A stretch of 64,000 nt of DNA from Patescibacteria group bacterium. GTDB taxonomy: Bacteria > Patescibacteriota > Patescibacteriia > Patescibacteriales > GWC2-42-12. A model generated the notes under the pieces. The model did not search any database and was not told the DNA's origin. It worked only from the letters and a program-made list of their open reading frames with translations. The translations under genes and the position numbers were made by a program. The DNA is taken from contig JBAZRI010000002.1 in assembly GCA_041662965.1 (NCBI GenBank), positions 46,062 through 110,061 of the forward strand. The letters are read 5' to 3'. Below are positions 12,676 through 63,509 of this stretch, in pieces (position 1 is the first letter of the stretch; each line of letters opens with the position of its first letter).

Positions 12676-12700
12676 CTAGGCTGTTGTAAATATTATAATA

Positions 12701-16822: not shown

Positions 16823-16837
16823 AAAATAATATGATAA

Positions 16838-16949
16838 ATTTTGACGGATAGAATTTTTGATTTTGAGCGCATACGAAATTGTAGTATTTTTTTAAAAAAA
16901 TACCCAAATTTCGTCTAAGTGAAAAATCAAAAAATCTATCCGTCAAACC
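16838..16949. repeat. long-hairpin repeat family R-C, copy 2
   Basis: ttgacggatagaatttttgattttGAGCGCATACGAAATTGTAGTATTTTT...AAAAATACCCAAATTTCGTCTAAGTGaaaaatcaaaaaatctatccgtcaa; near-perfect 24-bp outer arms. Confidence 0.65.
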
Positions 16950-25181: not shown

Positions 25182-25380
25182 TCGATTTAGACTAAAATTT
25201 AATTAAACAAATATCTCTTACGCAAGCGTTTACTCTAGCCTGCTTGTCCCCGGAGCATAAGCGCAGGGGGAACTATGGGAGCATAAAATAACCATAAAAT
25301 AAAATTGCCAATTTTCAGCAATACCAAAATACTACCGATTTAAACATGATTTGTCAAAACAATAATTGATAATTATTATT

Positions 25381-25490
25381 GTTTACGATTTATTTATGAA
25401 ATTTTCGTGCGAGGACTGTTTGAGCCCCACGGCAGCGGGGCGAGTTCCGCAGTAGAAAATTTCATAAATAAATCGTAAACATTCATGCGG
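25381..25490. repeat. hairpin repeat family R-B, copy 2
   Basis: gtttacgatttatttatgAAATTTTCGTGCGAGGACTGTTTGAGC..GAGTTCCGCAGTAGAAAATTTcataaataaatcgtaaac. Confidence 0.65.
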
Positions 25491-26552: not shown

Positions 26553-26966
26553 ATGTTAGACAAAAAAGCCAAGCAAAAAATCATCAACAAGTTTAAGATC
26601 CATGACACCGATACCGGATCTTCGCAGGTGCAAATCGCCATTTTAACCGAAGAAATCAAGCAATTGACCGAACACTTGAAAAAGCACAAGCATGACCATT
26701 CTTCAAGACGCGGCCTTCTAAAAAAAGTCGGCGAGCGCAGGCGCCTGTTGAAATATCTGCAAAAAGAAGATAAAGAAGCTTTTGACGAACTGGCTAAGGC
26801 CTTAAAATTAAGAATCGCCAAAAAGATGATTGAAGACGAAGAAGTCAGGCAAAAAATTGAGGATGAAATTTTAGCCAAGCAAGAATTAAAAGCCGAGCAG
26901 GCCGAAGAAGCGGAAAATGAGCGAGCCGAAGCCGAAGACCATAAAAATAAAGAAGACGAAGAATAA
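26553..26966 (+). CDS. rpsO: 30S ribosomal protein S15 with ~50-aa acidic C-terminal extension
   Basis: Start at ATG 26553; [59 protein letters not shown]; tail E/K/A-rich. Confidence 0.85.
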
Positions 26967-26969
26967 AAA

Positions 26970-27078
26970 GCGCCGGATAAAAATTTTGGTTTTGAGCGCA
27001 TACGAAATTGTAGTATTTTTCTTGAAAAAAAATACCCAAATTTCGTCTAAGTGAAAAACCAAAATTTTTATCCGGCAA
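26970..27078. repeat. long-hairpin repeat family R-C, copy 3 (between rpsO and the NYN gene)
   Basis: cgccggataaaaattttggttttGAGCGCATACGAAATTGTAGTATTTTT...CCCAAATTTCGTCTAAGTGaaaaaccaaaatttttatccggca. Confidence 0.65.
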
Positions 27079-27090
27079 AAATAACTATTT

Positions 27091-33555: not shown

Positions 33556-33798
33556 TTGTCTATGTATTATATTTATATTTTATTTTGCTCAGACGAAACC
33601 TATTATGTTGGATTAACTGAGAATATTAAAAAAAGAATAATACAACATAAAAACAGTTTAGTTGATTATACAAAATATAGATTACTAATTAAAGTTATTT
33701 GGATTGGAATATTTAAAAATAAAAAGATTGCCGCAAACTTTGAAAAATATCTAAAAACCGGATCTGGTAATGCATTCTTTAAAAAAAGATTAGTTTAA
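33556..33798 (+). CDS. small GIY-YIG nuclease-family protein (YhbQ/UPF0213-like)
   Basis: YYIYILFCSDETYYVGLTENIKKRIIQH (GIY..YIG..R..H); extremely AT-rich codons; inserted between tRNA-Ile and a tRNA cluster. Confidence 0.6.
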   Translation: MSMYYIYILFCSDETYYVGLTENIKKRIIQHKNSLVDYTKYRLLIKVIWIGIFKNKKIAANFEKYLKTGSGNAFFKKRLV

Positions 33799-36065: not shown

Positions 36066-36243
36066 CAAATTTATCCGCCTCTGGCGGAGGGGGCAGGGGG
36101 GATTTTACTTTTGTCATTCCCACTACTTTTTTGTCATTGCGGGCTTGATCCGGGATCCATTTCCTTTTCACCTGTCATTGAGAGAAGCCCGTACTCGGGC
36201 GACCTGCCGGCCGGCAGGCAGGCGAAGCAATCTCACGAATAAC
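36066..36243 (+). repeat. compound TGTCATT-type repeat cluster
   Basis: ccgcctctggcgg hairpin; tgtcattcccactac; tgtcattgcgggcttgatccgggatcc; tgtcattgagagaagcccgtactcgggcgacc..gcgaagcaatctcacgaataac. Confidence 0.55.
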
Positions 36244-36337
36244 TATTAACAAGTAAAGCTAATTAACTGCGAATATTCTTCTTACCTCAAAAAGACTAAA
36301 ATATTCTTCTTATATTTTACCTAATTTTAGCCATAAA

Positions 36338-36384
36338 AAGTCAACAATATACCAATTTTTGGTATTATGGTTGACTTTTTTTTG
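36338..36384 (+). terminator. strong rho-independent terminator upstream of the membrane-protein island
   Basis: aagtcaacaatatacc-aattttt-ggtattatggttgactt + ttttttt. Confidence 0.55.
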
Positions 36385-36595
36385 ATTTTATGCTATTATA
36401 TAATATTCTAGTCGTACCTTTTTCTCTCACTTTTAGTCATATTCAGCATTATCATTCCCGCATAAGCGCGAATTCAGAAAAGCTTTAATTTAAAGAAAGA
36501 GCCTAAATGCCTTACGGCCAAAAGCGAGAGAAAAAAGGTTCGACTTAGTCGGACTTTAACAATTTGAAAAAACAATAAACATATAGGAGGTAAAA

Positions 36596-38287
36596 ATGGA
36601 CATTAAATCAATTCTTAGCGAATTTGGCACGGCTTTATTGGCTGACGTTTTCAGTATTAAAATGTTGACCAAACTGTTAGCGAAAGGAGCAAGCAGACAA
36701 GAAGGGTCTGCTGCTACTGCCACTACTGCTTCTACCGCCACTGCTCCCGGAACTGATGAAATTAAATTTGGCGGCATTTTTGATTTATCCGAGGAAACAG
36801 CTTATTTAAGTCTAATGGCAAAAATGGAATCTGATCCTCAATTAAAAAATGCGGCAATTAAAATTTCTAGTTTCGTTAATGGCAACAATTTTCAAAACCA
36901 TGGCCAACGGCGAAGGTTTAGGGTCGTGGTGGGCAAACTCGCCAATATTGAGTATATCAAAGAAGATTTAGTCACAGAAAAACAAATTCCAAACCCTAAG
37001 GGCGGTAAACCGGTTATTGAAAAAACAACCAAACAGACAAAAAGTAACCTCGGGTTGGAATTTCTTAAGAGTTTTTCTCGATTAAGTGAAGAGGAGATGC
37101 TGGAAATTTGCAAAGCTTCTGGCATTATGGAATCGACAATGGATAATATCGGCGAAGGCTTAAGCCACGCCGGCGAGGAAATCTCCAAAATCGCAAAAAA
37201 AATTGAAAGTAGCCAAATTGCTCAAGATATAATGGCTGGTTCTGCAAAAAAAATGAGGGAGAGAATCCAAACACTCGAAGAATCTCCATACCCGCCTACT
37301 GAAGGTGAATGCGAAGAAAAAAAGATGACCATCTCGGTATTCCTAACTTTAACATTTGAATGGCTATCGGCTGAATATAAAACCGGCGACCTGAATGATG
37401 CTCTTGAAAAGGTAAAAAACATTATAAATATAACCAAGCAAAAAGCACAACAATGGTGGATCTGGGCGAAGCGTTTGGCCATCTGGGGAACGATCATTTC
37501 ATTTGTTATTTTCTTGGCTGGTATATTCATCGGAGGATTTACACAATTGGGATGGCCGAATTCAGTAGTTGGTTTGTTAATCGCCCCGATACTTTTTGCC
37601 ATTTTGGTGTGGTGGACCCCGCTAGTCGCAATTATAGCGGTAATATACGAAATTACCCACTTAAGAATTAAGGGGGCAACGAATGTAGGAATCACTCAAG
37701 CAAAATGGTGGCTGAATTTCGTCTGCGGAGTTCTGCTTTGGCAAGTAATCATCTCATTGGCTTTTACTTTTATCCCCTACTGGAATGCGATTTCGCGTAT
37801 CCCGGTGATGATCCTGCTTGCTCTTGGAATGGCTCTAATGAGTCTCCGGTGGGGAGGTATAACCTGGTATAGGTCAATCATCAAAACTTTGGTAGCGCTA
37901 ATGTTTATTCTCCAAGTAACGGTGTGTTTCTTACCAGCAACTGCCACTGCTATACACTCGCTATTAGGGAAAACCGATAGCTTAATAGCAACATGGTTGA
38001 CTACTGGAGCATGGATTGATAATTCTAATGATCGTGAAATTAAAAAAATGTCGGGGGGCCTTTGGATTGTCAGTTTCAAAAACGCTGACCCCATAGAGTT
38101 AGATATTCCTCTAAATTCACGATTCCTCATCTCCGCTTCGGAGGCTATAAATCTTCAGTGGCCAGTTATGGGCAACCCAGGCGAATTCTGTACGGTTCCT
38201 TTGAACACCGAAATCACTAACAAAATTTTTGCCAAAGTCACCCTGAAGGGTGAAGCAGGCAAAACAATCACAGTTAAACTGCTGTAA
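36596..38287 (+). CDS. 563-aa polytopic membrane protein of unknown function (soluble N-domain ~270 aa, ~6 TM, C-terminal extracytoplasmic domain)
   Basis: Near-consensus RBS ataggaggtaaaaATG; Trp-rich TM block (WWIWAKRLAIWGTII...WWTPLVAIIAVIY...). No recognisable catalytic motif; codon usage atypical for this genome. Confidence 0.6.
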   Translation: MDIKSILSEFGTALLADVFSIKMLTKLLAKGASRQEGSAATATTASTATAPGTDEIKFGGIFDLSEETAYLSLMAKMESDPQLKNAAIKISSFVNGNNFQNHGQRRRFRVVVGKLANIEYIKEDLVTEKQIPNPKGGKPVIEKTTKQTKSNLGLEFLKSFSRLSEEEMLEICKASGIMESTMDNIGEGLSHAGEEISKIAKKIESSQIAQDIMAGSAKKMRERIQTLEESPYPPTEGECEEKKMTISVFLTLTFEWLSAEYKTGDLNDALEKVKNIINITKQKAQQWWIWAKRLAIWGTIISFVIFLAGIFIGGFTQLGWPNSVVGLLIAPILFAILVWWTPLVAIIAVIYEITHLRIKGATNVGITQAKWWLNFVCGVLLWQVIISLAFTFIPYWNAISRIPVMILLALGMALMSLRWGGITWYRSIIKTLVALMFILQVTVCFLPATATAIHSLLGKTDSLIATWLTTGAWIDNSNDREIKKMSGGLWIVSFKNADPIELDIPLNSRFLISASEAINLQWPVMGNPGEFCTVPLNTEITNKIFAKVTLKGEAGKTITVKLL

Positions 38288-38308
38288 AGGAGGAAAGCAG
38301 TTTAACTT

Positions 38309-38350
38309 ACGAGGGCTATGAACTTTTTTGTTCACCCTCGTTTTATTTTG
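38309..38350 (+). terminator. rho-independent terminator after the 563-aa gene
   Basis: acgagggctatgaac-ttttttg-ttcaccctcgt + tttatttt. Confidence 0.5.
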
Positions 38351-38395
38351 CTTAAAATAGAAAAAATGGTATTATATTAATATAATATTTAATAA

Positions 38396-38848
38396 ATGTC
38401 TATGAAAAAATTACTACTAATTTTCTTATTTATCGCCGTAAGCCTATTTATTGGAAATTTTGTTTTAGCTGGGTGTATTTGTAATGGTAATCCGACAAGT
38501 GACACCGAGACTGCTTGTGGAGACAGGCTAGCATCAGATTTCTGCATATGGAGAGAAACTGAATCTGGCGGCTCCGCCGGTCCCGTCTCCCTCCCCAACC
38601 CCCTTGGCGAGGGAAAAACCGACATCCCCACTCTACTCGGCAAAATCGTTTCTTCCGTCCTCGGCGTAGTCGGCTCTTTAGCCTTGGTTATGTTTATCTA
38701 CGGCGGCATTACCTGGATGCTGTCGGCCGGCAACCAGGAGCAGGTGACCAAAGGCAAAAATATTCTAATCTGGGCGACCGTTGGCATTGTGATTATCTTT
38801 ACTGCCTACGCGCTGGTTAGATTTGTTTTGACGACGGTAACTAGTTAA
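38396..38848 (+). CDS. VirB2/TrbC-like 'T4SS pilin' family small membrane protein (paralog 1 of 11)
   Basis: Signal peptide plus Cys-rich N-region. Conserved C-module ...LGVVGSLALVMFIYGGITWMLSAGNQEQVTKGKNILIWATVGIVIIFTAYAL shared with 10 other ORFs in the window. Confidence 0.7.
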   Translation: MSMKKLLLIFLFIAVSLFIGNFVLAGCICNGNPTSDTETACGDRLASDFCIWRETESGGSAGPVSLPNPLGEGKTDIPTLLGKIVSSVLGVVGSLALVMFIYGGITWMLSAGNQEQVTKGKNILIWATVGIVIIFTAYALVRFVLTTVTS

Positions 38849-38876
38849 TAAACTAATAGTTTACAATCTATAACAT

Positions 38877-38907
38877 AAAACACGGTCTTGACCGTGTTTT
38901 ATATTTT
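38877..38907 (+). terminator. rho-independent terminator after pilin gene
   Basis: aaaacacggtc-ttga-ccgtgtttt + atatttt. Confidence 0.6.
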
Positions 38908-38918
38908 CAAAATTTATC

Positions 38919-39068
38919 AAAATCACCCCGGGGTTTGGGGTGACGAATAAGCGCCAAGGCGTGAGCATCAAAAGATAAATCAACGTGATAGCGCATTGAG
39001 GCACCCCAAAACTTCTTTGGTTACTTTCTTAGTTATAAGAAAGTAACCCCTAGCGGAGCGTCACGAAC
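38919..39068 (+). repeat. ~150-nt structured repeat family R1, copy B
   Basis: aaaatcaccccggggtttggggtga...aagataaatcaacgtgatagc...ggttactttcttagttataagaaagtaacc...cgtcacgaacag; compensatory changes relative to copy A in both hairpins. Confidence 0.7.
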
Positions 39069-39149: not shown

Positions 39150-39185
39150 CTGGATCCCGGATCAAGCCCGGGATGACAAAACAAA
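39150..39185 (-). repeat. TGTCATCCCGGGCTTGATCCGGGATCCAGGG unit (reverse orientation)
   Basis: Reverse complement resembles 36143 tgtcattgcgggcttgatccgggatcc. Confidence 0.5.
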
Positions 39186-40054: not shown

Positions 40055-40069
40055 ATATTTTAGTTGATG

Positions 40070-40164
40070 GGGCTAAATTTTATTAAATTTTTGAACGAGG
40101 ACTGTCTGAGCTCGAGTACTCTCGGGCGAAGTTACGAGAGGAGAAAATTTAATAAATTTAGCCA
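40070..40164. repeat. hairpin repeat family R-B, copy 3 (divergent core)
   Basis: ggctaaattttattaaaTTTTTGAACGAGGACTGTCTGAGCtcgagtactctcgggcGAAGTTACGAGAGGAGAAAATTTaataaatttagcc. Confidence 0.55.
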
Positions 40165-40195
40165 CATCTCTCATGCGATTTATAATTTAAATGGA

Positions 40196-41227: not shown

Positions 41228-41647
41228 CTAAGCTCCGGTAGTCGCTCCGACGATTTGATTTATGACGAAATTAGTCAGCGCGTAAGCCGATAAAATAATA
41301 ATTAGGCCGATCACGCCGTTAATCAGCATTTTTTTAGCCTCGGAGACGTTTTCTTCGTTGCCTCCAGCCGTCATCCATTTAAAACCCGCATATAAAACTA
41401 TGATAACGGCGATGATGCCGAGAAAGCCTAAAATAAATTTAATAATATCGGCCGCAACCTGGCGCGGATCGCGGTCAGCTGCCTCGCCCAAACCTGAATT
41501 ATCTCTAGTATAAGTTTTTAAATCATTGCCTCCCCAATAATCATCTGAACTCACGGCTAAGGATTGCGAGGCTGGAGCCAAAACTAAAATGGCCAACGAG
41601 AAAATCATCGCCGCCGTAATGACTTTCTTAAAAAAAATTTGTTTCAT
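41228..41647 (-). CDS. VirB2/TrbC-like T4SS pilin family protein (paralog 2)
   Basis: ...ILGFLGIIAVIIVLYAGFKWMTAGGNEENVSEAKKMLINGVIGLIIILSAYAL. Confidence 0.7.
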   Translation of the reverse strand: MKQIFFKKVITAAMIFSLAILVLAPASQSLAVSSDDYWGGNDLKTYTRDNSGLGEAADRDPRQVAADIIKFILGFLGIIAVIIVLYAGFKWMTAGGNEENVSEAKKMLINGVIGLIIILSAYALTNFVINQIVGATTGA

Positions 41648-41756: not shown

Positions 41757-42215
41757 CTACTGCCAAATCACCGGTGTATCGGTAGTCGCTCCGACTATAT
41801 AGCTTATAATAAAAGTAGCTAAGGCATAAGCCGATAAAATAATAACTAAGCCGATCACCGCGTTAATCAGCATTTTTTTAGCCGTAGCGACGTTTTCTTC
41901 GTTGCCTCCGGCAGTCATCCATTTAAAGCCGGCGTATAAAATTATCACCACTGTTATTATTCCTAAAAACCCCAAAACAATTTTAATTATATCCACAATT
42001 GTCATTCTGATATCTCTAGGCGTGCTCCCGTCATAAGCTTGGCCAACCTGATTAAGCCCGCCGTCGTTAACCCTCTGCCACCAATCACCTTCAGCCTTGA
42101 CTTGATTAATAGCGCTAAAATCGGCCGTAACCGGGGCTAGAGCTAAAAACATAGACAAAAATACAGCGCTTAGGCTATACTTAATAATTGATTTAAATTT
42201 TTTAGTCATAAACAT
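41757..42215 (-). CDS. VirB2/TrbC-like T4SS pilin family protein (paralog 3)
   Basis: ...VLGFLGIITVVIILYAGFKWMTAGGNEENVATAKKMLINAVIGLVIILSAYAL. Confidence 0.7.
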   Translation of the reverse strand: MFMTKKFKSIIKYSLSAVFLSMFLALAPVTADFSAINQVKAEGDWWQRVNDGGLNQVGQAYDGSTPRDIRMTIVDIIKIVLGFLGIITVVIILYAGFKWMTAGGNEENVATAKKMLINAVIGLVIILSAYALATFIISYIVGATTDTPVIWQ

Positions 42216-43772: not shown

Positions 43773-44804
43773 ATGACCAAAATTCTCCTGATTAATTCAT
43801 CGGCTGAAAAAAATTTATTGCTGATTCGCGCCTGTAAAGAACTGGAGCAAAAAAACTTTTCCTTGGCTTTTCTGTCTTCAAAAAAACCCCTGCTCGGGCA
43901 ATTTAAATTCCTGTTTTTATTAACCGGCTTTAGGCTTAAGCGAAAAGTTGACATAGTCGCCTGCCTTAATTTCAATGAGAAAATTGTTATTACCCCGTTG
44001 GCCCGCTTGTTTGGCTTAAAAGTTATATGGCTTGAAGGGCCGGAAGCAGACTACCGGCAATTTAATAAATTTTTATTGGCATTATATAAATTAAATTTCC
44101 GGCTGGCGAAAACCATTGCTTTTAATAATTATTCTAAACTAAAATTAAAAAATATCGGCTGCGATGAAAATAAAATAAGCCTGATAACTCCGGGCGCCAA
44201 GCTTTCTCCCTACCAAGAAAATATTTTTAATAAGCTGGCTAGCGCCGGCCGGGTGAATTTCCACCGCAAATATTTTACGGTCGGCCTCGTAACCGCTTTA
44301 AACCAAAAACAAAAAATTGAAACGATTTTCCAGGCCATAAAAACCAGCTTGCCGGTAATCCCCAATATCCAGCTGATTATAATCGGCGAGGGCGAAGAAA
44401 GGAAGAATCTCTCATGGCTCGCAAAAAAAATGGAAATTGATAATCTAGTCTGGCTGGTCGGCGAACAGGAACAGCTGAAAAAATGGCTTGACAGTTTTGA
44501 TGTTTTTTTGGCTTTGGGAGAAAAATTATCGCTTGATGATTATGGCAATATTCTAGAAGCCATGGCCGCCGGCCTGCCGGTTCTAGCTCCGCGCAATATC
44601 GGTCTGGAAGACTTAATTATGGAAAATAATACCGGCGCGCTGATTGAATCCAATAACAGCGAGATGCTGGCGCGGCAAATTATTAAATTACATCAAGACA
44701 AGCGTTTACGCCTGTTTTTAGGCAAAAACGGCCGAGAACGCGCCAGCCGATCATTCACTTTGGAAATAATGGTTGAAAAATTAGCAGTCATATTAAAAAA
44801 TTAA
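43773..44804 (+). CDS. glycosyltransferase family 1 (GT4-like)
   Basis: C-terminal GT-B motif ...LALGEKLSLDDYGNILEAMAAGLPVLAPRNIGLEDLI... Confidence 0.7.
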   Translation: MTKILLINSSAEKNLLLIRACKELEQKNFSLAFLSSKKPLLGQFKFLFLLTGFRLKRKVDIVACLNFNEKIVITPLARLFGLKVIWLEGPEADYRQFNKFLLALYKLNFRLAKTIAFNNYSKLKLKNIGCDENKISLITPGAKLSPYQENIFNKLASAGRVNFHRKYFTVGLVTALNQKQKIETIFQAIKTSLPVIPNIQLIIIGEGEERKNLSWLAKKMEIDNLVWLVGEQEQLKKWLDSFDVFLALGEKLSLDDYGNILEAMAAGLPVLAPRNIGLEDLIMENNTGALIESNNSEMLARQIIKLHQDKRLRLFLGKNGRERASRSFTLEIMVEKLAVILKN

Positions 44805-44814
44805 CTATTTTTGT

Positions 44815-44910
44815 TCAGGCTAAATTTACTAAATTTTCGTGCGAGGACTGTTTGAGCGAGCGTTAGCGAGCGAGTTCCGCAGTAGAAAATTTTGTGAATT
44901 TAGCCTGAAC
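44815..44910. repeat. hairpin repeat family R-B, copy 4
   Basis: gttcaggctaaatttactAAATTTTCGTGCGAGGACTGTTTGAGCgagcgttagcgagcGAGTTCCGCAGTAGAAAATTTtgtgaatttagcctgaac. Confidence 0.65.
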
Positions 44911-44929
44911 TTTCATGTCATAAAATAGC

Positions 44930-47523: not shown

Positions 47524-48428
47524 TTTACCTCCTGTCCAGCTTTTTCTTCATTTAAACTATTACAATATTTTTGGATATCGCTACAAACTCGATCTTCTCC
47601 AAAGTTAATATTATTGCTTTCGCCAGGATATTTTTTTTCCTCTTCATCCCGTATATTTTGTACAATTTTTAAAACTCTACCATAACTATCGGCGATGGTT
47701 GTTTTACCTCTTTTTTTCGCATACTCGGCAAAATCATTCAATTGCATCTCAATCTGGCTGATAATTAAAAATTTTACGTGATGTTGGGCTAGGCTTCTTT
47801 TTTTATTATCTACCCACAACTTAATTATTTCATTTAAATTCTTCATATCAACGCCGATAATTACTCTAGGAACATTTTTCATTTCTCCACGATAAGTATC
47901 GGTTAAAAGGTATTGAATAACCCCAATATTCCCTTTATCTATCCGTTTTTTTATACTGTCCATTTTATCAATAATGCCTTTGCCAAAAGTTATATCTACG
48001 CCTAAAGCTAAATGGGAGGTTGATGATGTCTCGGTTTGCTCAAACTCGATTATTTCATCTATGCCATTTTTTAAATCATCATACCAAGAGGCTTTTTGAG
48101 CGGTAGCATGCTCCCCCAGCCAGCCGTTCATATCAATTTGATCATGAATTATGGCTTCAAAAACTATGGCATATTTTTGCGCTTCTATTTGCTCGGGCGT
48201 ATTATCAATTTTAAATTTTTGCTGTCTTTGCTCCACATAATCACCATGCTCTTTTATTATCCGACTTTTATATAAATCTCTAAATTCGTCCTGACTTATT
48301 CTTTCTTCGTTAAGTAATTCAACAGCTTTTTTATAAGCTATGTTCAAATTTATTTCATGTTCTTCGCTATCACTTCCTCTTTCTTGTTTATTAATTAATA
48401 TAGCTTCGGGTGAAAAATTTTTATTCAT
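47520..48428 (-). CDS. hypothetical 302-aa protein, AT-rich codon usage, no recognisable family
   Basis: Acidic N-terminus; ...LALGVDITFGKG...RVIIGVDMKNLNEI...; codon usage differs from core genes. Confidence 0.45.
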   Translation of the reverse strand: MNKNFSPEAILINKQERGSDSEEHEINLNIAYKKAVELLNEERISQDEFRDLYKSRIIKEHGDYVEQRQQKFKIDNTPEQIEAQKYAIVFEAIIHDQIDMNGWLGEHATAQKASWYDDLKNGIDEIIEFEQTETSSTSHLALGVDITFGKGIIDKMDSIKKRIDKGNIGVIQYLLTDTYRGEMKNVPRVIIGVDMKNLNEIIKLWVDNKKRSLAQHHVKFLIISQIEMQLNDFAEYAKKRGKTTIADSYGRVLKIVQNIRDEEEKKYPGESNNINFGEDRVCSDIQKYCNSLNEEKAGQEVN

Positions 48429-48876
48429 ATTTATGATTTTTAATAGATAACAACAATAAAATTACGCCAACCGTTATCATTATGTCAGCTAAATTAAACA
48501 CGGTAAAATATTTTAAATCCAAATAATCAATTACAAAGCCATATTTAAGCCTGTCAAATAAATTACTGCTGGCGCCGGCGATAATTAGAGATAACGCCAC
48601 GGCCTTAAAGATTTGCGCCTTTTTAAGGCAAGCCAAGCCGAATAATATTAAAATTACTATTATCAAGGCGATTAAAATCATCAGCGGCCAGCCGGCTAAA
48701 GGCAAGGAAAAAGCAATATAGTAATTATTTTTATAGCTAAATTTTAAAATTTCACCCAATAAATTAAATTCGCTCGCCTGATTGGCAAAAGAAAAAACCT
48801 TAAAAAATCTATCCAGTGCAATAAAAAAAATGACAGCCATGCTAATCGCTATCATTTTTTTAAAATCTTTAAGCAT
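48421..48876 (-). CDS. lspA: lipoprotein signal peptidase II
   Basis: Start at internal Met (MLKDFKK); C-terminal NLFDRLKYGFVIDYLDLKYFTVFNLADIMITVGV signature. Confidence 0.75.
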   Translation of the reverse strand: MLKDFKKMIAISMAVIFFIALDRFFKVFSFANQASEFNLLGEILKFSYKNNYYIAFSLPLAGWPLMILIALIIVILILFGLACLKKAQIFKAVALSLIIAGASSNLFDRLKYGFVIDYLDLKYFTVFNLADIMITVGVILLLLSIKNHKYE

Positions 48877-48886
48877 AAGTCTCGCG

Positions 48887-49258
48887 CTAAGCCATTTTTT
48901 GCAGCTTGGTCTTGCAAGCAATGCAAGTATTGGCCACCGGCCTGGCCATAAGCCTTTTTTCGCCGATTTCTTTTTTGCAATATTTGCAGATGCCGTAAGT
49001 TCCTTTGGCAATTCTCACCAAAGCATTATCAACGTCGCGCAGAGCGCTCTCTAAAACTTTTTCCGTGGCCAAATTAGTGGTGTATTCGTCAATTTCTTGA
49101 ACGCTCTCATCGCTCTTGTCGCCATAATTAGGAAATTTAGCCTGGTGCTCGTCTTTGGTATGCTCGTCTTTTTTAGTAAAACTCTTTAGATCTTCGCCTA
49201 GCTGTTTTTTACTGGCCAATAATATTTTTTTTATTTTCTCTATAGCCTTTTTGTCCAT
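48887..49258 (-). CDS. DksA/TraR-family C4 zinc-finger protein
   Basis: C-terminal CKYCKKEIGEKRLMARPVANTCIACK (CxxC-x17-CxxC). Confidence 0.7.
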   Translation of the reverse strand: MDKKAIEKIKKILLASKKQLGEDLKSFTKKDEHTKDEHQAKFPNYGDKSDESVQEIDEYTTNLATEKVLESALRDVDNALVRIAKGTYGICKYCKKEIGEKRLMARPVANTCIACKTKLQKMA

Positions 49259-51669: not shown

Positions 51670-52119
51670 TTACTCGCCTGTATTATTTACTGGATTTGAA
51701 GGTGCCCCGCCTCCACCGCCTCCCCCATCCGGCAAACTGCTAAACACGAAATAAGTTATGGAGTAAGCCGCGGTAATAATAATTAAGCCGATAACCGCGC
51801 GCGTTAAAGTATTTTTTGCCAGCGTTACCTTTTCTTCGTCGCCTTGCGCCGTCATCCAGTTATAGCCGGCATAAATTATCAAAACTAGAAAAATTATGCC
51901 TAATAAGCCTAAAAAAGCGCTAATCGCAATTCTAATCATTTGCGGCATAGTATTTACCGTAGCCTCTTCGCCGCCCCAACCTTTAGTACCTGCTTTATCC
52001 AACTGATCAAAAAGTTCTACTCCTGCCCTGGCCTGGCAGGACTGAATACTAAACAAACTATTTATCAAAAAAATAACAGATAAAACGCTAAAAATAAATT
52101 TAATATATTTTTTGGCCAT
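51670..52119 (-). CDS. VirB2/TrbC-like T4SS pilin family protein (paralog 4; array member 1) with Gly-rich C-tail
   Basis: ...FLGLLGIIFLVLIIYAGYNWMTAQGDEEKVTLAKNTLTRAVIGLIIITAAYSI...GGGGGGG. Confidence 0.7.
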   Translation of the reverse strand: MAKKYIKFIFSVLSVIFLINSLFSIQSCQARAGVELFDQLDKAGTKGWGGEEATVNTMPQMIRIAISAFLGLLGIIFLVLIIYAGYNWMTAQGDEEKVTLAKNTLTRAVIGLIIITAAYSITYFVFSSLPDGGGGGGGAPSNPVNNTGE

Positions 52120-52124
52120 ATTTA

Positions 52125-52511
52125 TTATAATATCCTGGCTGTAAATATTAGCTTAACTAGTACCCATGTGCTAATCGCATAGGCGGCAATAGTTATAATC
52201 AAACCGATAACCGCGCGCTGAAGCGTATCTTTAGCTTTATTAACCTTTTCCTCTTCGCCCTGCGCTGTCATCCAGTTAAAACCGGCATAAATTATCAAAA
52301 CTAAAAATATAACGCCTAATAAGCCTAAAAAAGCCTGAATAACTATGCCAACGATTTCCGCCAGCTTATATTGATCGGCAGCCGCATATGGCGCGGTGCC
52401 GCCTTCTTCTCCAACCTTTTTTAAACTATTATAAGCATCGCTAGAAGCTAGAACAAACGACGGAAAAATCAGCATCAGTAAAAATATTAAAATTACTATT
52501 TTTTTTGCCAT
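52125..52511 (-). CDS. VirB2/TrbC-like T4SS pilin family protein (paralog 5; array member 2)
   Basis: ...FLGLLGVIFLVLIIYAGFNWMTAQGEEEKVNKAKDTLQRAVIGLIITIAAYAI. Confidence 0.7.
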   Translation of the reverse strand: MAKKIVILIFLLMLIFPSFVLASSDAYNSLKKVGEEGGTAPYAAADQYKLAEIVGIVIQAFLGLLGVIFLVLIIYAGFNWMTAQGEEEKVNKAKDTLQRAVIGLIITIAAYAISTWVLVKLIFTARIL

Positions 52512-52539
52512 AAAATTAATTTTAGTTTATCTGCGATTT

Positions 52540-52992
52540 TTATTCGGGTTGTGGAGTAGGGGCAGGCGTAGTCTGCCCTGATCCGGCGCCTTTTAAAGTT
52601 CCGACTTCTATTCTAGCCATAACAAAAACGCTAATAGCGTAGGCCGCGACGATTATAATAACACCGACGATGGCCCGCTTTAGCGTGTCTTTAGCTTTTT
52701 CCACCTTTGCCTCTTCGCCCTGCGCCGTCATCCAATTATAGCCGGCGTAAAGCATATAAGTTAAAAGCACCACGCCGATAACGCTTAAAAAAGCGTTGAT
52801 GACGATTTGAATTAAAGATAATAAATCTCCGGAAGTATCATAACCGCCGTCAGATCCAGCGAATAGCGTTTTAGCATCTATATCATTTTTCGTTTCCTCT
52901 TTTAATAAACCAGCAAAACATAAATTACCAATCAAAAAAACAAAGAAAAATAATATTATTGCCAAATAAAATTTTTTACTTTTATAAATCAT
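52540..52992 (-). CDS. VirB2/TrbC-like T4SS pilin family protein (paralog 6; array member 3)
   Basis: Start at internal Met (MIYKSKKFYLAIILFF) to avoid overlap with the upstream gene; ...LSVIGVVLLTYMLYAGYNWMTAQGEEAKVEKAKDTLKRAIVGVIIIVAAYAI. Confidence 0.65.
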   Translation of the reverse strand: MIYKSKKFYLAIILFFFVFLIGNLCFAGLLKEETKNDIDAKTLFAGSDGGYDTSGDLLSLIQIVINAFLSVIGVVLLTYMLYAGYNWMTAQGEEAKVEKAKDTLKRAIVGVIIIVAAYAISVFVMARIEVGTLKGAGSGQTTPAPTPQPE

Positions 52993-53008
52993 AATTAATC
53001 CAATTAAA

Positions 53009-53383
53009 TTAAAACAGTCTGTCAAAAATAAACCTCCAAATAGCGTAAGCGCCAACTACGATAATTATGCCGATTATAGCCCGATTTATAGTATCTTTAG
53101 CTTTAGAGACTTTCTCCTCTTCGCCGCGCGCCGTCATCCAGTTATAACCGGCGTAAATCATTAAAATCAAAAAAATTGAACCCACTAAAGCTAAGGCGGA
53201 ACTTATAATAGTTCCGATTGCCACAGATAAGCCAAATTCTCCTGCTACTTGATAAGGCCCTTTTGTTGCTCCAACCTCCTGCAATTTTCCTAGCGCGGCA
53301 TTTTCGGCTAAAACCAATTGCGGCAAAACAATAATAATTGCCAGCCAAACCAATAAAATAATTTTTGAATATTTTTTAATCAT
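53009..53383 (-). CDS. VirB2/TrbC-like T4SS pilin family protein (paralog 7; array member 4)
   Basis: ...LALVGSIFLILMIYAGYNWMTARGEEEKVSKAKDTINRAIIGIIIVVGAYAI. Confidence 0.7.
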   Translation of the reverse strand: MIKKYSKIILLVWLAIIIVLPQLVLAENAALGKLQEVGATKGPYQVAGEFGLSVAIGTIISSALALVGSIFLILMIYAGYNWMTARGEEEKVSKAKDTINRAIIGIIIVVGAYAIWRFIFDRLF

Positions 53384-53464
53384 TATATTTATATTTCAAC
53401 TAATTACTCAATAAATATTTTTATAATACCAGCGTCCTGAAAATTTTCTAAAATAATTCGTGTG

Positions 53465-53920
53465 TCATTCTGAAAGAAGTTCCGGCCCCGACTCTTCTAA
53501 GGTGGCCGTGCCTAAAGCATTAATTACATACCAGCTAATGGCGTAAGCGGCTAGAACAACCACTAAGCCAATAATCGCATTCTGGATAATTTGCTTGGCT
53601 TTTTCCACCTCCTGCTCGTTGCCCCGCGCCAGCATCCAAATATAACCGCCGTAAATCGCCAAAATTAAAAATAATACTCCGATGAAGCTTAAGGCCGTTG
53701 TAATAACTAAAGAAATCATACTTTCGGCTGTTACGCTATCGCTAACATTATAACCTGCTCCATCTGGACCGGCCACTTCATCAAGCGTGCTGTTTTTACC
53801 AAAAGCATCATACAAATTATCAGTCTTGGCCTGGGAAAAAAGAGGCGCTAAAATAACAAACCATAGAATCAAAACCAAGGCTAAATTTTTTATAACTTTA
53901 AAATTTATGATTTTCTCCAT
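53465..53920 (-). CDS. VirB2/TrbC-like T4SS pilin family protein (paralog 8; array member 5)
   Basis: ...LSFIGVLFLILAIYGGYIWMLARGNEQEVEKAKQIIQNAIIGLVVVLAAYAI. Confidence 0.7.
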   Translation of the reverse strand: MEKIINFKVIKNLALVLILWFVILAPLFSQAKTDNLYDAFGKNSTLDEVAGPDGAGYNVSDSVTAESMISLVITTALSFIGVLFLILAIYGGYIWMLARGNEQEVEKAKQIIQNAIIGLVVVLAAYAISWYVINALGTATLEESGPELLSE

Positions 53921-54327
53921 AAAATTACCATTAATTCTGTTATGGCGTAAGCGCCTAAAACTACGGCTAAACCGATTACCGCGTAAATTATAATATTTTT
54001 GGCTTTGGCGACTTCCTGTTCATTGCCCCGCGCCAGCATCCAGAGAAATCCCGCATATATCATTAAGCCCAAAAAAATTACGCCTAAAAAAGTTGTTGAA
54101 ATATTTAATATTTTACCGATCTTTTGCGGCAGAGATAAACTATTCGCCGGGTCCGCAGTATAACCGATTCCTGCGCCAGCCTCTGTTAAGCCTTTGTTGA
54201 ATGATGATGCTGCTGATATTTTTATAATGCCGGCGTTAAACAAAAAACCGTTTAATAAAACAACGCCGACTATAAAACATAATATTTTTTTCAACCCGTT
54301 AGAAATTCTGGTTTTATTAGCTTGCAT
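53905..54327 (-). CDS. VirB2/TrbC-like T4SS pilin family protein (paralog 9; array member 6)
   Basis: ...TTFLGVIFLGLMIYAGFLWMLARGNEQEVAKAKNIIIYAVIGLAVVLGAYAI; 16-nt overlap with the upstream gene. Confidence 0.7.
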   Translation of the reverse strand: MQANKTRISNGLKKILCFIVGVVLLNGFLFNAGIIKISAASSFNKGLTEAGAGIGYTADPANSLSLPQKIGKILNISTTFLGVIFLGLMIYAGFLWMLARGNEQEVAKAKNIIIYAVIGLAVVLGAYAITELMVILWRKS

Positions 54328-54383
54328 ATTTTTAAAATAACACTCATAAAATTTTATAATTTCTAACGGGTTTCATAAAGATA

Positions 54384-54776
54384 TTATTTGCCTACAATCC
54401 CGCTAAGATAAGTAGTTATGGCATAAGCCATTAGAACTATGACCAAGCCGATAACCGCGGCGATTATAATATCTTTGGCTTTGCCGGCAGTCTGCTCGTT
54501 GCCCATGGAAAACATCCACATATAACCGCCGTAAATTATCAAAATGAAAAAGGCCACGCCTAAAAAAGATAAGGCCACGCCAACGATTTTGCCAATTGTT
54601 TCTGATAGAGTTGCGGTCTTTGTTATATTGTTGCCAAATCCACCTGTCGCGGTTTTATTTAAACCTGTGTCATCTTCAATAGCGGCCAACCCTACCTGCG
54701 CCACCATTAAAAATGATAAAACAAATAACAGGCTAATAAAGATAAATTTAAATTTTTTGGTCAAAAACATACACAA
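54384..54776 (-). CDS. VirB2/TrbC-like T4SS pilin family protein (paralog 10; array member 7)
   Basis: ...LSFLGVAFFILIIYGGYMWMFSMGNEQTAGKAKDIIIAAVIGLVIVLMAYAI. Confidence 0.7.
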   Translation of the reverse strand: MCMFLTKKFKFIFISLLFVLSFLMVAQVGLAAIEDDTGLNKTATGGFGNNITKTATLSETIGKIVGVALSFLGVAFFILIIYGGYMWMFSMGNEQTAGKAKDIIIAAVIGLVIVLMAYAITTYLSGIVGK

Positions 54777-54780
54777 AAAT

Positions 54781-54900
54781 TTCTGTCATTCCGGCCGTAG
54801 CCTGTCCTGTACTTGATACAGGATGCCGTAATCCAGAGTTCAGCGCAACGAACAAATTTCTGGATTGCTGGTCAAGCCCGCAATGACGATTTAATTATTC
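54781..54900. repeat. compound TGTCATTCC / GCAATGACGA-type repeat cluster inside the pilin array
   Basis: tgtcattccggccgtagcctgtcctgtacttgatacaggatgccgtaatccagag...ggattgctggtcaagcccgcaatgacga. Confidence 0.55.
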
Positions 54901-54991
54901 CACCGCTCTGCTCACGAGATCAAAATCATGTTCAGGGCAGTGGCCCGGGCTAAGCCCGGAACCACCTTTTTTAACACCGGTGTTAAAAATT

Positions 54992-55411
54992 TTATGTCGC
55001 GGTAGCGGCAGACAATTGATTCAAGACAAAAGTCGCGATGGAAAAAGCTCCAAGAATAATTACCAAGCCGATAATGCCGGCGGTGATTAACTTCTTGGCT
55101 TCGCCAACCTTATCTTCGTTGCCTCCGGCAGTCATCCATTTAAAGCCGCCTAAAAGAATAATAATAACAGCGACAATACCTAAAAAGCCTAAAATTACAT
55201 TGATAATGGAGGCGGCAATTTCGCGCGGATCTTTTACTCCTAAGCCGGTCGCGTCTGTTATAACCGCCGACCCAGCATCGTTACCGGTTCCCTCTCCCCA
55301 AACGTCAACGCCATCAACAGCTAAAGCCGGTAAAGAGAAGGCCATAACCGGAGTCAGCACCAACAAAGCCATGGCAAATACCACTGCTTTTTTCAATAAT
55401 ATTTTTTTCAT
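54992..55411 (-). CDS. VirB2/TrbC-like T4SS pilin family protein (paralog 11; array member 8)
   Basis: ...ILGFLGIVAVIIILLGGFKWMTAGGNEDKVGEAKKLITAGIIGLVIILGAFSI. Confidence 0.7.
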   Translation of the reverse strand: MKKILLKKAVVFAMALLVLTPVMAFSLPALAVDGVDVWGEGTGNDAGSAVITDATGLGVKDPREIAASIINVILGFLGIVAVIIILLGGFKWMTAGGNEDKVGEAKKLITAGIIGLVIILGAFSIATFVLNQLSAATAT

Positions 55412-55600
55412 TTTTCACCTCCCCTCAAGAAAACACGAATATGCGCGAATTCAACCCGCGATATTTGTGCCGTTTAAATAATTTAAGTTATTAACACTAA
55501 ATATATTTTACCATAAAACGCAAAAGCGAGCCAATAACTAATAACGCAAAAGCTATAAGTTGCGAGCTACGGCGAAAACTGTTATAATTTTCTATATTAT

Positions 55601-58547
55601 GACTGCTTCATATTCATCAAACCGCGTAAAATCGCCGCAAAATTGGCGCCAAGCCAAAAAAAAATATTTTTTAAACAAAGCCAAGAAAAATTCATCTGAT
55701 TTCGGCAATCGGGGAGGCGTTAAACAATATTCAAGCGGAAAAAATAAGAATCCCCTAAAAATAAACCTGGCTAAAACCATCTTTATCGGCCTTTTGGCTT
55801 TATTTATTTTTGGCTATGCCGGTTTTCTTTGGCTAACGCACGATCTGCCTGATCCTAACCGCTTGATTGAACGCCAAGTGGCGCAGAGCACAAAAATTTA
55901 TGACCGCACCGGGCAAACCATCCTTTACGAAATCCACGGCGACCAGAAGCGCACCATGATTAGTTTGAGTGACGTGCCGGATAACTTAAAAAACGCCACT
56001 ATTTCCATAGAAGACAAAGATTTTTATAAACATGGCGGCTTCAGCCTCTGGGCTATTTTTAGAACGCTGGTAACCGACGTTCTTTTCGGCAAGCGAGCCG
56101 GCGGCTCAACCCTAACCCAGCAATTTATTAAAAATTCGGTTTTAACCAATGAAAAAACCATCACCAGAAAAATCAAAGAAATAATTTTAGCTTACCGGTT
56201 GGAAAAAAAATTCTCTAAAGATGAAATTTTGCAGATGTACTTTAATGAAATCCCTTACGGTTCAACCGCTTACGGCGTTGAAGCGGCCAGCCAAAAATAT
56301 TTCGGCAAATCGGCGCGCGATTTAAACTTGGCCGAAGCGGCCATTTTAGCGGCTATACCGCAAGCGCCCAGCCGCTATTCGCCCTACGGCCCGAATAAAG
56401 ATATTTTATTGGCGCGGCAAAAATATATTATAGATTTAATGGTAAAGTACGGCTATACTTCTAAAGCCCAGGCCGAAGAAGCAAAAAATTTTAAACTAAC
56501 ATTCAAGCCCCAATCAGACAATATCACGGCGCCGCATTTTGTTATGTATGTTAAAGAAATCTTAGCGGATAAATACGGGGAAAAAACCATAGAGCAGGGC
56601 GGCTTAAAAATTTATACCACGCTTGATTTATACAAACAAAAAATCGCCGAAGAAGTAATCAGCGCCAAAGCGGTTGATAACGAAAAAAAATACCAGGCAA
56701 CAAACGCCGCCCTGATTTCCATTGACCCGAAAAACGGCCAAGTTCTGGCCATGGTGGGCTCGCGCGACTATTTTAACGACGATATTGACGGCCAGGTCAA
56801 CGTGACGCTGCAGCCCCGCCAGCCAGGCTCGTCGTTTAAGCCTATAGTCTACTCGGCCGCGTTTATCAAGGGCTACACGCCCGAGACCGTGCTGTACGAC
56901 GTGGTGACTAATTTTTCCACTGACCCGAATCCGGCCAATGCTTACGAACCACATAACTATGATTTAAAAGAGCATGGCCCGGTTACCATCAGGCAGGCCC
57001 TGGCCGGCTCTTTAAACATACCGGCAGTTAAGGCTCTTTATCTTGCCGGAGTTAATAATGTTATAAGTTTAGCGCAAAATTTCGGCTATACCACGTTTAA
57101 TGACAAAGAGCGTTTTGGCTTGTCTCTGGTTTTAGGCGGCGGCGAGGTAAAATTATTGGAACACGCCAACGCTTTTAGCGCTTTCGCCCGCGAAGGCGTT
57201 AAGCATCCGATCGCCGTTATTTTAAAAATTGAAGATAAGGACGGCAAGATTTTGGAAGAATTTAAAAATCAGGATGAAAAAATTTTAGACGCGGGTATCG
57301 CGCGCTTAACCAACAGTATTTTATCCGATAATTCGGCGCGCGCTTATATTTTCGGCCAAAACAACTATCTGACCCTAGGTTCAAGGCCGGTAGCGGCCAA
57401 AACCGGCACTACCAACGACTACCATGACGCCTGGACCATCGGCTACACGCCGTCAATCGTCACCGGCGTCTGGGTGGGCAACAGCAATGGCAAAGAAATG
57501 AAACGAGGCGCCGACGGTTCGGTGGTGGCCGCGCCGATTTGGCACGATTACATGGATAAAGTTTTAGGCAATACGCCGATTGAGTATTTTAATCCCCCGG
57601 ACAACAAACCAACCGGCAAACCCGTGTTGGACGGCGTGATTGACCCTGATACCGCGGTTAAAATTGATAAATTCTCCGGGCTTTTAGCCAATGAATTTAC
57701 GCCGGCCAGCGCTATCGTAGAAAAACAATTTAAACAAACTCATTGTATTTTATACTATATTAATAAAGACGACCCGCGCGGACCGGCGCCGTCCGATCCG
57801 AAAAACGACCCACAATTTGCTTTATGGGAAAGCAGAGTTTTAGAATGGGCAAAAAAACAAGGCATTGTAAATTCAGCGCCGCCGACCGAATATGATAACG
57901 TCCATCGGCCGGAATTTAACCCGATCATATCAATTGATTCTCCGAGCAATAATCAAACCATCGCTGACCAATTATTAAACGTGCAAATCAGCGCTACGGC
58001 TCCGCGCGGCATTAACCGAGCCGAATATTATATTGACGGTTACTTATTCGGTTCCTCGGTTGCCTATCCCTTTGATCTTAATAAATCAGTAAGCTCTTTA
58101 AGCAACGGCTTCCATAGTTTAACCGTGCGCGTTTGCGATGATGTTGATAATTACTCTGAGCAAAAAATAGAATTTAATTTAATAAATAATAATAAGCCAA
58201 AAACCACTAAAATCAGCCTAACTCTAACTCAGCCTCTTGACGCGACCAGCATTAATAAATATGATTTCCCTTTACTCTTAAAAGCCGAGGTGGTTAATCC
58301 GGAGCAGGCCGCCGGCGTCACTTTTTATTTTAAAGACTCTAGCGGTAAAATACAGCAGATTGCCAAAAGCCAAGTTATAGATAAAACCGCCGAGGCCCAA
58401 ATGACCAATATTTTAACTCCCGGCTCCTATAAATTTTATGCCGAAGCGCGCGGCTGGTATGGCCAAACCGCTAAAAGCGAAGAAGCTTCTATAACTGTTA
58501 ATAGCCTGCCCCTAGCCGCCACTACCACACCGGCGGCTGCCCAATAA
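55601..58547 (+). CDS. class A penicillin-binding protein (PBP1A: glycosyltransferase GT51 + transpeptidase) with C-terminal Ig-like extension
   Basis: GT51 motifs EDKDFYKHGG, GGSTLTQQ; transpeptidase SSFK, SLN, KTGT. Start uncertain (55560 alternative-codon start or ATG 55601). Confidence 0.85.
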
Positions 58548-58606: not shown

Positions 58607-59758
58607 TTATTGTTTTATCGGCATAATGATATACAAATAACTTTCATCTTGCTCCGGCCTGATAATGCACGGAGTATTAGAGTCTATAACCTCAATCTTA
58701 ACCGTTTCTTTTTCAATATTGCTTAAGCCCTCTAATAAATAACGATAATTTACCACAATGCTATTGTCATCACCCGACACCTTGGCCTCTAAATTTGTTA
58801 TATTTTCCCCGGTTTGCCCGGAAACCGAAGAAATCACTACTTGATTTTTGCCTAAAGGAAAATCTAAATTAACATCATTAATGCCGGTTTTAGAAAATAA
58901 AGAGGCCATTTTTACGGCGCGAATTAATTCTTGCCGGTCAATAGAAATTTTAGTTTTACTGTTGTTGGGGATAATCTGCTGATAGTCGGGGTATTGACCT
59001 TCAATTAAACGCGAGACCAATTCAGTTGAACCATAAGTAAATAAAATTTGATTTTCTGAAATATAAAATTTTATTTCCGAGTTTTTTTCTTCCACTTCGT
59101 CATCTAAATTAATTGATAAAACCCTTAATAGCTCCTGTAAAGTCTTAGCCGGCACAATAATCTTTTTTTCTTCTTCGTTGTTTGATTTGATTTTAATCTT
59201 TTTTTCAGCTAAGCGATAGCTGTCGGTCGCGGCCAGAGTTAAACTGCCACCAGAAAAATCAAAAAGTACGCCGGATAATTCCAGTCTGGTTTCACTTAAA
59301 GCGGTGGCAAAAATTACCTGGGAAATCGCCTTTTTTATTTCTTCGGCCTCCGCGCTAAAATAATTTTTTCTGTCAACTTCCGGTATCAAAGGAAATTCTT
59401 CGGCCGATTGGCCTTTAGCCTTGGCTTGATAATTTTCGCAATCTACTAACAAATCATTCTCTTTCTGCTCCAGGCCGATCTTTTTATTCGGCAAAAGATT
59501 TATGCAATCAGAAATAATTTTTGAACTTACGGTAAACGACCCTTCACGCTCAATTTTTCCCCTAACCGTGCTAACTACGCCAATCTCCAAATTAGTGGCG
59601 ATTAGCTTTATTTTGCCTTCTTCGGCTTTAATTAAAACATTATTCAATATCGGCAAGTTAACGTTTTTCCCCGAAACATGCCCGACTAGCGCCAAGCCTT
59701 GCTTTAAATTTTCTTGCAAGCTGAATATTTTTAATCCGCCGGAGTTTTGACTTGTCAT
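58607..59758 (-). CDS. dnaN: DNA polymerase III beta sliding clamp
   Basis: 383 aa, three-domain clamp; N-terminus MTSQNSGGLKIFSLQENLKQGL. Confidence 0.9.
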   Translation of the reverse strand: MTSQNSGGLKIFSLQENLKQGLALVGHVSGKNVNLPILNNVLIKAEEGKIKLIATNLEIGVVSTVRGKIEREGSFTVSSKIISDCINLLPNKKIGLEQKENDLLVDCENYQAKAKGQSAEEFPLIPEVDRKNYFSAEAEEIKKAISQVIFATALSETRLELSGVLFDFSGGSLTLAATDSYRLAEKKIKIKSNNEEEKKIIVPAKTLQELLRVLSINLDDEVEEKNSEIKFYISENQILFTYGSTELVSRLIEGQYPDYQQIIPNNSKTKISIDRQELIRAVKMASLFSKTGINDVNLDFPLGKNQVVISSVSGQTGENITNLEAKVSGDDNSIVVNYRYLLEGLSNIEKETVKIEVIDSNTPCIIRPEQDESYLYIIMPIKQ

Positions 59759-63268: not shown

Positions 63269-63297
63269 TATGGTGTACTTTTTTATAAATTTTTATA

Positions 63298-63465: not shown

Positions 63466-63509
63466 ATTGTATTTTAAGGCGAACCTAGAAAAATTTAGGA
63501 ATAGATTTT

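Follow-up and report, generated by a model that had tools for sequence, protein, structure and literature searches.

We analyzed a locus within a stretch of 64,000 nucleotides (nt) of DNA from a Patescibacteria group bacterium (assembly GCA_041662965.1, contig JBAZRI010000002.1, positions 46,062 to 110,061), hereafter referred to as the window, in which an open reading frame (ORF) of 563 amino acids (aa) and a gene for a 150-aa VirB2/TrbC-like pilin lie between trmD and a ROK kinase gene. A first-pass annotation, made from the letters alone, had described these genes as an island of atypical codon usage insulated by terminators and repeats. The ORFs, a near-consensus ribosome-binding site, the terminators, a cluster of TGTCATT repeats and a copy of the repeat R1 are located where it had placed them (Table 1), and the 563-aa ORF does belong to a codon-atypical unit (codon z -7.5) with three hairpins and flanking repeats. 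Within this ORF we distinguished two unannotated protein families, A and B, a new pair of accessory proteins to a pilin whose kind is known.

The A-B open reading frame and its pilin gene

Homology searches indicated that the 563-aa ORF is probably an in-frame join of two genes that are kept apart in every relative found. All the homologues recovered in a first search (11/11) were proteins of 316-339 aa, each starting exactly at M244 of the ORF, and directly upstream of them the homologue contigs carry a separate gene of 220-250 aa with homology to residues 1-243. We refer to these residues as A and to the remainder, which corresponds to a protein of ~320-340 aa in relatives, as B. For one more remote locus hhalign still relates the upstream gene to A (probability 97%), and in several relatives the A and B genes overlap by 4 nt. 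The joint in the window sits at a run of seven adenines (A7), and a run of six would give ...EEKR-TGA, overlapping the B start codon (ATGA), i.e., two genes. The soluble N-terminal domain of the first-pass annotation, for which we predict a cytoplasmic location, is therefore a separate gene in all relatives and not a domain of an ancestral protein, and the view of a single 563-aa protein as the ancestral unit is not supported.

No other fused A-B example was found in the homologue searches or in the loci of relatives. The position of the joint at an A7 run, the canonical ATGA overlap that A6 gives back and the presence of two genes in all relatives would also be expected if the fusion came from a misread homopolymer length or represented a minor variant, the organism itself having two genes. 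We consider this improbable, and the fusion probably real, because the identical 563-aa product is on record in two NCBI metagenome-assembled genome (MAG) entries as well as in JGI, ENA and Logan assemblies, and because B has no Shine-Dalgarno sequence of its own in the window, unlike the B genes of L003 and L004 (loci of relatives are given by number).

The 150-aa protein encoded downstream of B matches a family of type IV secretion system (T4SS) pilins, PF18895 (T4SS_pilin; E 5e-13, 49.4 bits against a cut-off of 26.6), in agreement with the VirB2-like pilin proposed by the first-pass annotation, and falls just below the cut-off of TrbC (E 7e-6, 26.6 bits against 27.9). In its sequence, aligned with 16 paralogues and orthologues, a signal peptide at the N-terminus precedes a hydrophobic hairpin of two helices. 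This protein is already known and carries the annotation "pilin" at both NCBI and JGI. In the one Patescibacterium that has been examined by genetics, VirB2-like pilins are essential (PMC10633639).

Several signals surround these genes. The three hairpins, which fold much more stably than shuffled controls (z scores in Table 1), all precede U-runs. The first terminator of the earlier annotation was recovered as a hairpin; its 3' arm, however, also supplies the -35 box of a promoter-like site that is near-invariant in an alignment of relatives. The leader of ~200 nt that follows contains a conserved long-range stem in which 6 pairs show compensatory changes across 7 sequences (the window, L001, L003, L004, L007, L009, and L010), with a variable apical loop that has taken up small repeat insertions. 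A search of Rfam with this leader gave no family match; it may act in the regulation or processing of the operon transcript. Upstream of the pilin ATG no Shine-Dalgarno sequence can be made out, and a TATAAT box lies 10 nt before it, suggesting that the pilin transcript may be leaderless or nearly so.

Table 1. Features of the A-B-pilin locus (positions in the window; dG and z refer to hairpin folding)
Feature	Position	Strand	Details
Cluster of small repetitive extragenic palindromic (REP)-like repeats 3' of trmD	36066-36243	+	TGTCATT at 36112, 36132, 36173; GCGAAGCAATCTC at 36222
28-nt inverted repeat, left arm	36132-36159	+	TGTCATTGCGGGCTTGATCCGGGATCCA
trmD terminator hairpin	36338-36378	+	followed by T8; dG -17.2, z -5.6
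Promoter-like site	36371-36399	+	TTGACT-N17(TG)-TATTAT
5' leader long-range stem, 23 bp	36411-36544	+	36411-36438 pairs with 36516-36544
Shine-Dalgarno AGGAGG	36585-36590	+	5 nt 5' of the 563-aa ORF ATG
563-aa ORF	36596-38287	+	
Part A, residues 1-243	36596-37324	+	predicted cytoplasmic; separate 220-250 aa gene in all relatives
A7 run at the fusion joint	37317-37323	+	directly 5' of the B ATG
Part B conserved core, residues 244-446	37325-37933	+	predicted cytoplasmic helices and 5 transmembrane helices
Hypervariable tract	37830-38575	+	B ectodomain, spacer, pilin N-terminal half; from the nt identity profile
Part B ectodomain, residues 447-563 and stop	37934-38287	+	predicted outward stalk helix and hypervariable cupin-like beta-sandwich
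Terminator-like hairpin 3' of B	38309-38341	+	followed by UUUUAUUUU; dG -16.3, z -5.1
Promoter-like site	38358-38386	+	TAGAAA-N17-TATAAT; 10 nt 5' of the pilin ATG
150-aa VirB2/TrbC-like pilin	38396-38848	+	signal peptide, 4-Cys variable region, conserved two-helix core
Terminator hairpin 3' of the pilin gene	38875-38902	+	dG -14.4, z -6.4
Repeat R1 copy	38919-39068		dispersed family; other copies near 5755-5926, 49423, 63282-63473
28-nt inverted repeat, right arm	39151-39178	-	2 mismatches

Topology, predicted fold and mosaic ancestry

Hydropathy analysis placed five transmembrane (TM) helices in B, at residues 294-312, 332-350, 375-393, 401-419, and 428-446, and not the roughly six of the first-pass annotation, whose description of a polytopic protein with a soluble N-terminal part and an outward C-terminal domain otherwise agrees with the topology prediction. 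By the positive-inside rule, the N-terminus of B, and hence A, would be cytoplasmic, and residues 447-563 would lie outside. An AlphaFold2 (AF2) model of B, based on a 61-sequence alignment (predicted local distance difference test (pLDDT) 85.7; predicted template modeling score (pTM) 0.61), consists of cytoplasmic helices, a bundle of TM helices, a long helix that forms a stalk, and a beta-sandwich with a pLDDT near 90; in the full-length AF2 model, the core of A (residues 62-180) has a pLDDT of 76-96. The two short outward loops of B harbor the strictly conserved motifs GWPNS and FIPYWNA, and across the wider B family almost no residue is invariant.

Searches of Pfam, NCBIfam, PHROGs, and PADLOC with the fusion, its parts and the family members gave no match, in agreement with the initial statement that the 563-aa protein belongs to no recognizable family, and the PADLOC anti-phage defence profiles matched neither A, B, the fusion nor the pilin. 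No conserved catalytic or nucleotide-binding motif was found in A. Fold searches returned only generic helix bundles for the membrane core of B and only generic helical hairpins for A. The only matches from sequence and profile comparison with the PDB, to ATP synthase b (a TM helix with a long helix; E 2e-3) and to histone H2B (E 2e-3), were judged spurious.

The B family is rare, with 60 cluster representatives at E<=1e-3 among 1.84 billion, and family scans recovered one locus in GTDB species genomes and three in JGI metagenomes, of which one locus overall was new. The sole GTDB-representative contig with the cassette, CAYOXC010000007.1 (L004/L013), belongs to a MAG titled "uncultured Gammaproteobacteria" and is probably mis-binned, given gene identities of 79-94% to the Patescibacteria window.

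Comparison with relatives revealed that the parts of the cassette differ in ancestry. The genome closest to the window is L004/L005, with core proteins 79-94% identical at the aa level. Identity to the window in L004/L005 and in L009/L010 is, respectively, 76-80% and ~40% for A, 71% and 57-60% for the membrane core of B, and 18-20% and 60-64% for the B ectodomain. L003 is likewise mosaic, with an A protein nearest to that of L010 (77-80%) and a B membrane core nearest to that of L004 (84%). At the nt level, identity to L004/L005 is 70-98% in the flanks and falls to 23-56% only across the hypervariable tract of ~750 nt (at ~37830-38575). The pilins of the cassettes are near-identical in their C-terminal core and differ in their mature N-terminal regions, and the window, L009 and L010 share one type of B ectodomain together with a 4-Cys pilin insert (LAGC[I/V]CNG...C...C). 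The ectodomains of more distant B members are unrelated.

The LAGC at the end of the pilin signal peptide resembles a lipobox, and the window encodes lspA at 48421-49011. Since the window, L009 and L010 all retain the four Cys, a lipoprotein appears less likely than cleavage by signal peptidase I followed by formation of two disulfides; by either route, the region encoded at 38396-38560 could form an N-terminal mini-domain, lipid-anchored in the first case and disulfide-knotted in the second.

Genomic position and codon usage

The gene order rpsP (S16)-KH-trmD-A-B-pilin-ROK is shared by seven independent relatives; it was found in L001/L002, L003/L014, L004/5/6, L007/8, and the P0013 contig, and in part in L009 and L010/11. 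This syntenic block often runs on with genes for a glycoside hydrolase (GH), a further pilin, a flippase, a family 4 glycosyltransferase (GT4), RluD and gmk, as in the window. The more distant loci L020 and L021 keep the A-B-pilin trio, and in L018 and L019 an overlapping gene lies upstream of B. Altogether, at least nine independent loci have the pilin gene next to B. The proposal of a variably present island is not supported by this comparison, as all relatives recovered have the same genes in the interval from trmD to the ROK kinase gene. Universal presence together with host-like codon usage had been named beforehand as an outcome that would speak against an island; the former was found, and codon usage is not host-like in either the window or L001.

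Toxin-antitoxin or abortive infection (Abi) genes occur beside the A-B pair in L003 (AbiEii, 6305-6721), L009 (HicA, 120-332) and L018 (PIN, Unstab_antitox and ParE, 6220-8651), suggesting that the A-B neighborhood is a hotspot for variable genes.

Codon usage was assessed by comparing the synonymous codons of each of the 61 genes of the window with a leave-one-out model built from the other genes. With the z of -7.5 given above, the 563-aa ORF is the most atypical of the 61, the next most extreme gene having -3.8, and its GC content is ordinary (0.41). By segment, z is -2.1 for residues 1-243, -6.9 for residues 244-460 and -4.4 for residues 461-563, and in the pilin gene it is -3.2 for the N-terminal half and -0.9 for the C-terminal half; only B and the pilin's N-terminal half are thus atypical, and A and the pilin C-terminal half are near normal. 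A bias common to membrane proteins was rejected as the cause, because other membrane genes of the window (a proton-pumping pyrophosphatase (H+-PPase), a flippase, YidC, and VTT/PAP2) are typical (+1.1 to -1.3). In L001, A and B are also atypical (z -7 to -8) and have a GC content of 0.52-0.54, against ~0.41.

Recent acquisition of a mobile island at the junction of trmD and the ROK kinase gene would account for the codon z of the ORF, for the repeat clusters and terminators at both ends, and for the 28-nt inverted repeat, which occurs just twice in the window, with the A-B-pilin cassette exactly between its arms. This explanation is largely refuted and retains hardly any probability: position and gene order are the same in all relatives, the identity of A is core-gene-like, the borders carry no integrase, transposase or tRNA gene, the inverted repeat was absent when searched for in the loci of relatives, and tblastn against plasmids and phages found no homologue. 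The marks of a mobile genomic island, variable presence together with mobility genes or an attachment site, were not found at the locus. The codon atypicality is best read instead as a sign of recombination and hypervariability at a locus whose core position is fixed, and the general lesson is that strong codon atypicality alone does not identify a variably present island.

The inverted repeat was considered as a conserved recombination site and, being absent from relatives, was dropped as a general feature; it could be a chance placement of REP-like elements or a substrate for inversion. The TGTCATT motif has 19 copies in the window, against 5.1 expected, three of them within 36112-36179. Two antisense ORFs inside B, 37222-37695 (-; 157 aa) and 37777-38130 (-; 117 aa), are probably a by-product of its unusual codon choice, with few TTA, CTA, and TCA codons.

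Further pilin genes are found elsewhere in the window, which holds 11 T4SS_pilin genes in total. Eight PF18895 genes stand in tandem at 51670-55411 (-), with the genes of PBP1a (55560-58547), dnaN (58607-59758) and dnaA (60052-61398) as neighbors, and match the origin-proximal VirB2 arrays described for Patescibacteria (PMC12102498). Two tandem paralogues at 41228-41647 (-) and 41757-42215 (-) share ~80% DNA identity over 214 nt (repeat family D3), and one pilin gene 3' of the GH gene is also conserved in relatives (L005 and the P0013 contig). Two families of palindromic intergenic repeats of ~110-120 nt, resembling miniature inverted-repeat transposable elements or REP elements, are dispersed through the window, the first at 12566-12682, 25370-25487, 40056-40175, and 44802-44917 and the second at 6050-6166, 16834-16947, and 26963-27079. 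Finally, the segment 31700-34247 (+) carries, in this order, a 16S rRNA gene, a tRNA-Ile gene, a small GIY-YIG nuclease gene (33556-33798; Pfam E 2e-12) and four further tRNA genes; as no 23S rRNA gene follows the 16S gene in the window, the rRNA genes appear to be unlinked.

Proposed role and comparison with known systems

Taking these observations together, we tentatively propose, with a little less than half of our confidence, that A, B and the pilin constitute a strain-variable envelope module dedicated to one VirB2-like pilin and encoded by a conserved chromosomal operon of a narrow Patescibacteria clade. In this proposal A would be the cytoplasmic partner of B, as their fusion and translational coupling suggest, and the in-frame join implies docking of A at B's cytoplasmic face. 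B, in turn, may be the membrane-embedded partner, either anchor or base, of its cognate pilin, and its assignment to one particular pilin follows from their adjacency, seen at nine or more independent loci. The ectodomain of B and the N-terminal region of the pilin would form a strain-variable exposed surface, which may serve attachment to, or recognition of, other cells; this role is suggested by the hypervariability and by the known pilins of Patescibacteria (PMC10633639, PMC12102498). We further suppose that homologous recombination, for which the conserved membrane core of B and the core of the pilin would provide the homology arms, replaces the exposed segment in one piece; the mosaicism and the codon usage unlike that of the host would both find an explanation in such replacement.

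Several observations weigh against this proposal. Physical contact between B and the pilin is inferred from gene linkage, and the covariation of ectodomain and pilin N-terminus could merely reflect the adjacency of their DNA. No gene for VirB4, VirD4 or other T4SS machinery was found within the window. The distant loci L018, L019 and L012 have B without an adjacent pilin gene, so that A-B can exist alone. As for codon usage, the backgrounds available for the test in relatives are small, and in the window the conserved membrane core of B is itself atypical (z -6.9), which replacement of the ectodomain block alone cannot explain.

Should the proposal hold, it would bear on a gap in current understanding, namely how a monoderm bacterium builds, anchors or targets VirB2-like pilins, and A-B offers a concrete and testable candidate for a pilin partner. 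The B ectodomain, which covaries with the pilin, is a candidate determinant of host or strain specificity. A bolder version, which we regard as unlikely, would make A-B an undescribed specificity module of the Patescibacteria VirB2-type pilus, in which B is a membrane base protein with an exchangeable ectodomain matched, allele by allele, to the variable N-terminal knot of the cognate pilin, A couples B to the cytoplasm, both together choose the partner cell (host or kin) for attachment, and strains exchange the exposed block by recombination.

The main rival to the envelope module dedicated to a pilin is that A-B is an autonomous two-protein envelope module, such as a cytoplasmic effector paired with a TM receptor or sensor, or a determinant of defence or exclusion, whose linkage to the pilin is historical. 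We hold this to be rather unlikely. The A-B pair with its 4-nt overlaps is the most widely conserved unit, the absence of an adjacent pilin gene in L018, L019 and L012 is as an autonomous pair would have it, the pair has AbiEii, HicA, or PIN and ParE genes as neighbors in L003, L009, and L018, respectively, and receptors under conflict typically have hypervariable ectodomains. However, neither PADLOC nor PHROGs yielded a match, A has no conserved catalytic or nucleotide-binding motif, a pilin orthologue with a near-identical core lies 3' of B in at least nine loci, and in the window, L009 and L010 the variable part of the pilin changes together with the B ectodomain.

We also considered that B is an extremely diverged platform of the VirB6/TrbL type that assembles the VirB2-like pilin, in line with the VirB6/TrbL-pilin pairing raised by the first-pass annotation. 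B shares with VirB6/TrbL about five TM helices with conserved Trp, a hydrophilic C-proximal domain and an adjacent VirB2-type pilin gene (again in at least nine loci), an architecture that recalls "extended VirB6" (PMC12857230), and VirB6 is reported to be scarce or undetectable in some Patescibacteria classes (PMC12102498). Nevertheless, the remote-homology comparisons with TrbL, TrwI and the VirB6 of MPF_T systems were all negative, and we give the pairing little credence: Pfam TrbL was not matched at E<=0.1 by the protein or at E<=0.01 by the 61 family members, neither PF04610 nor NCBIfam gave a match to B, and hhalign returned a probability of 0.2% for TrwI of R388 and one of 0.44% for an MPF_T VirB6 profile built from four plasmid sequences. 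B has no detectable similarity to the solved VirB6 fold (TrwI in the R388 T4SS) either. With 60 cluster representatives the B family is very small, the locus lies a long way from any VirB4, and in all loci the neighbors are trmD, the ROK kinase, GH and flippase genes and not those of VirB3, VirB4, VirB5, or VirB8; moreover, B is fused or translationally coupled to a cytoplasmic A. VirB6 of A. tumefaciens has a reported orientation opposite to the N-in/C-out orientation predicted for B. Given its architecture, B may be a functional analogue of VirB6, and membership of that family is unsupported.

Other systems offer partial parallels to the proposed pilin module. In the type IV pilin islands of Pseudomonas, pilin alleles are paired with a polytopic modifier, TfpO or TfpW, and in Pseudomonas aeruginosa, pilA with tfpO/W/X/Y/Z sits between pilB and a tRNA-Thr gene. 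This precedent, the strictly conserved motifs GWPNS and FIPYWNA, which could form an active site in the outward loops, and the conserved glycan-related neighbors (ROK kinase, GH, Wzx-type flippase, and GT4) would suit a B protein that is a pilin-maturation enzyme, for example one that glycosylates the exposed region of the pilin. We consider such a role very unlikely, as B resembles neither Wzy_C/PglL nor any enzyme family, the wider family has almost no invariant residues, and a variable ectodomain would be unusual in an enzyme. The pilA islands share with the A-B-pilin cassette a fixed location, a pilin and a membrane accessory gene that co-vary as alleles, and an atypical composition; they differ in having type IV pilins (like those of type II secretion systems) instead of VirB2-type pilins, in their unrelated accessory proteins, and in that no enzymatic role is indicated for B.

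Conjugative systems have entry-exclusion or specificity pairs, such as TraS-TraG, Eex-TraG and EexN, and in the plasmid loci examined here EexN was seen beside virB6. Like B, these are membrane proteins encoded next to pilin or VirB6 genes and have allele-specific variable regions; unlike B, they are small, B being larger with a predicted folded ectodomain, they show no homology to it, and no conjugative element is present at the locus.

A further close comparison is with the T4SS of Patescibacteria and their VirB2-like pilins (Wang et al. 2023, PMC10633639; Quinonero-Coronel et al. 2025, PMC12102498). As a PF18895 protein, the 150-aa pilin is a bona fide member of this group and likewise has a variable N-terminal region, and the array beside dnaN and dnaA described in these studies is found in the window as well. 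In contrast to the arrays, this pilin gene is a singleton located away from them, with its own promoter and terminator, and it is tied to A and B, which those studies do not include among the T4SS components.

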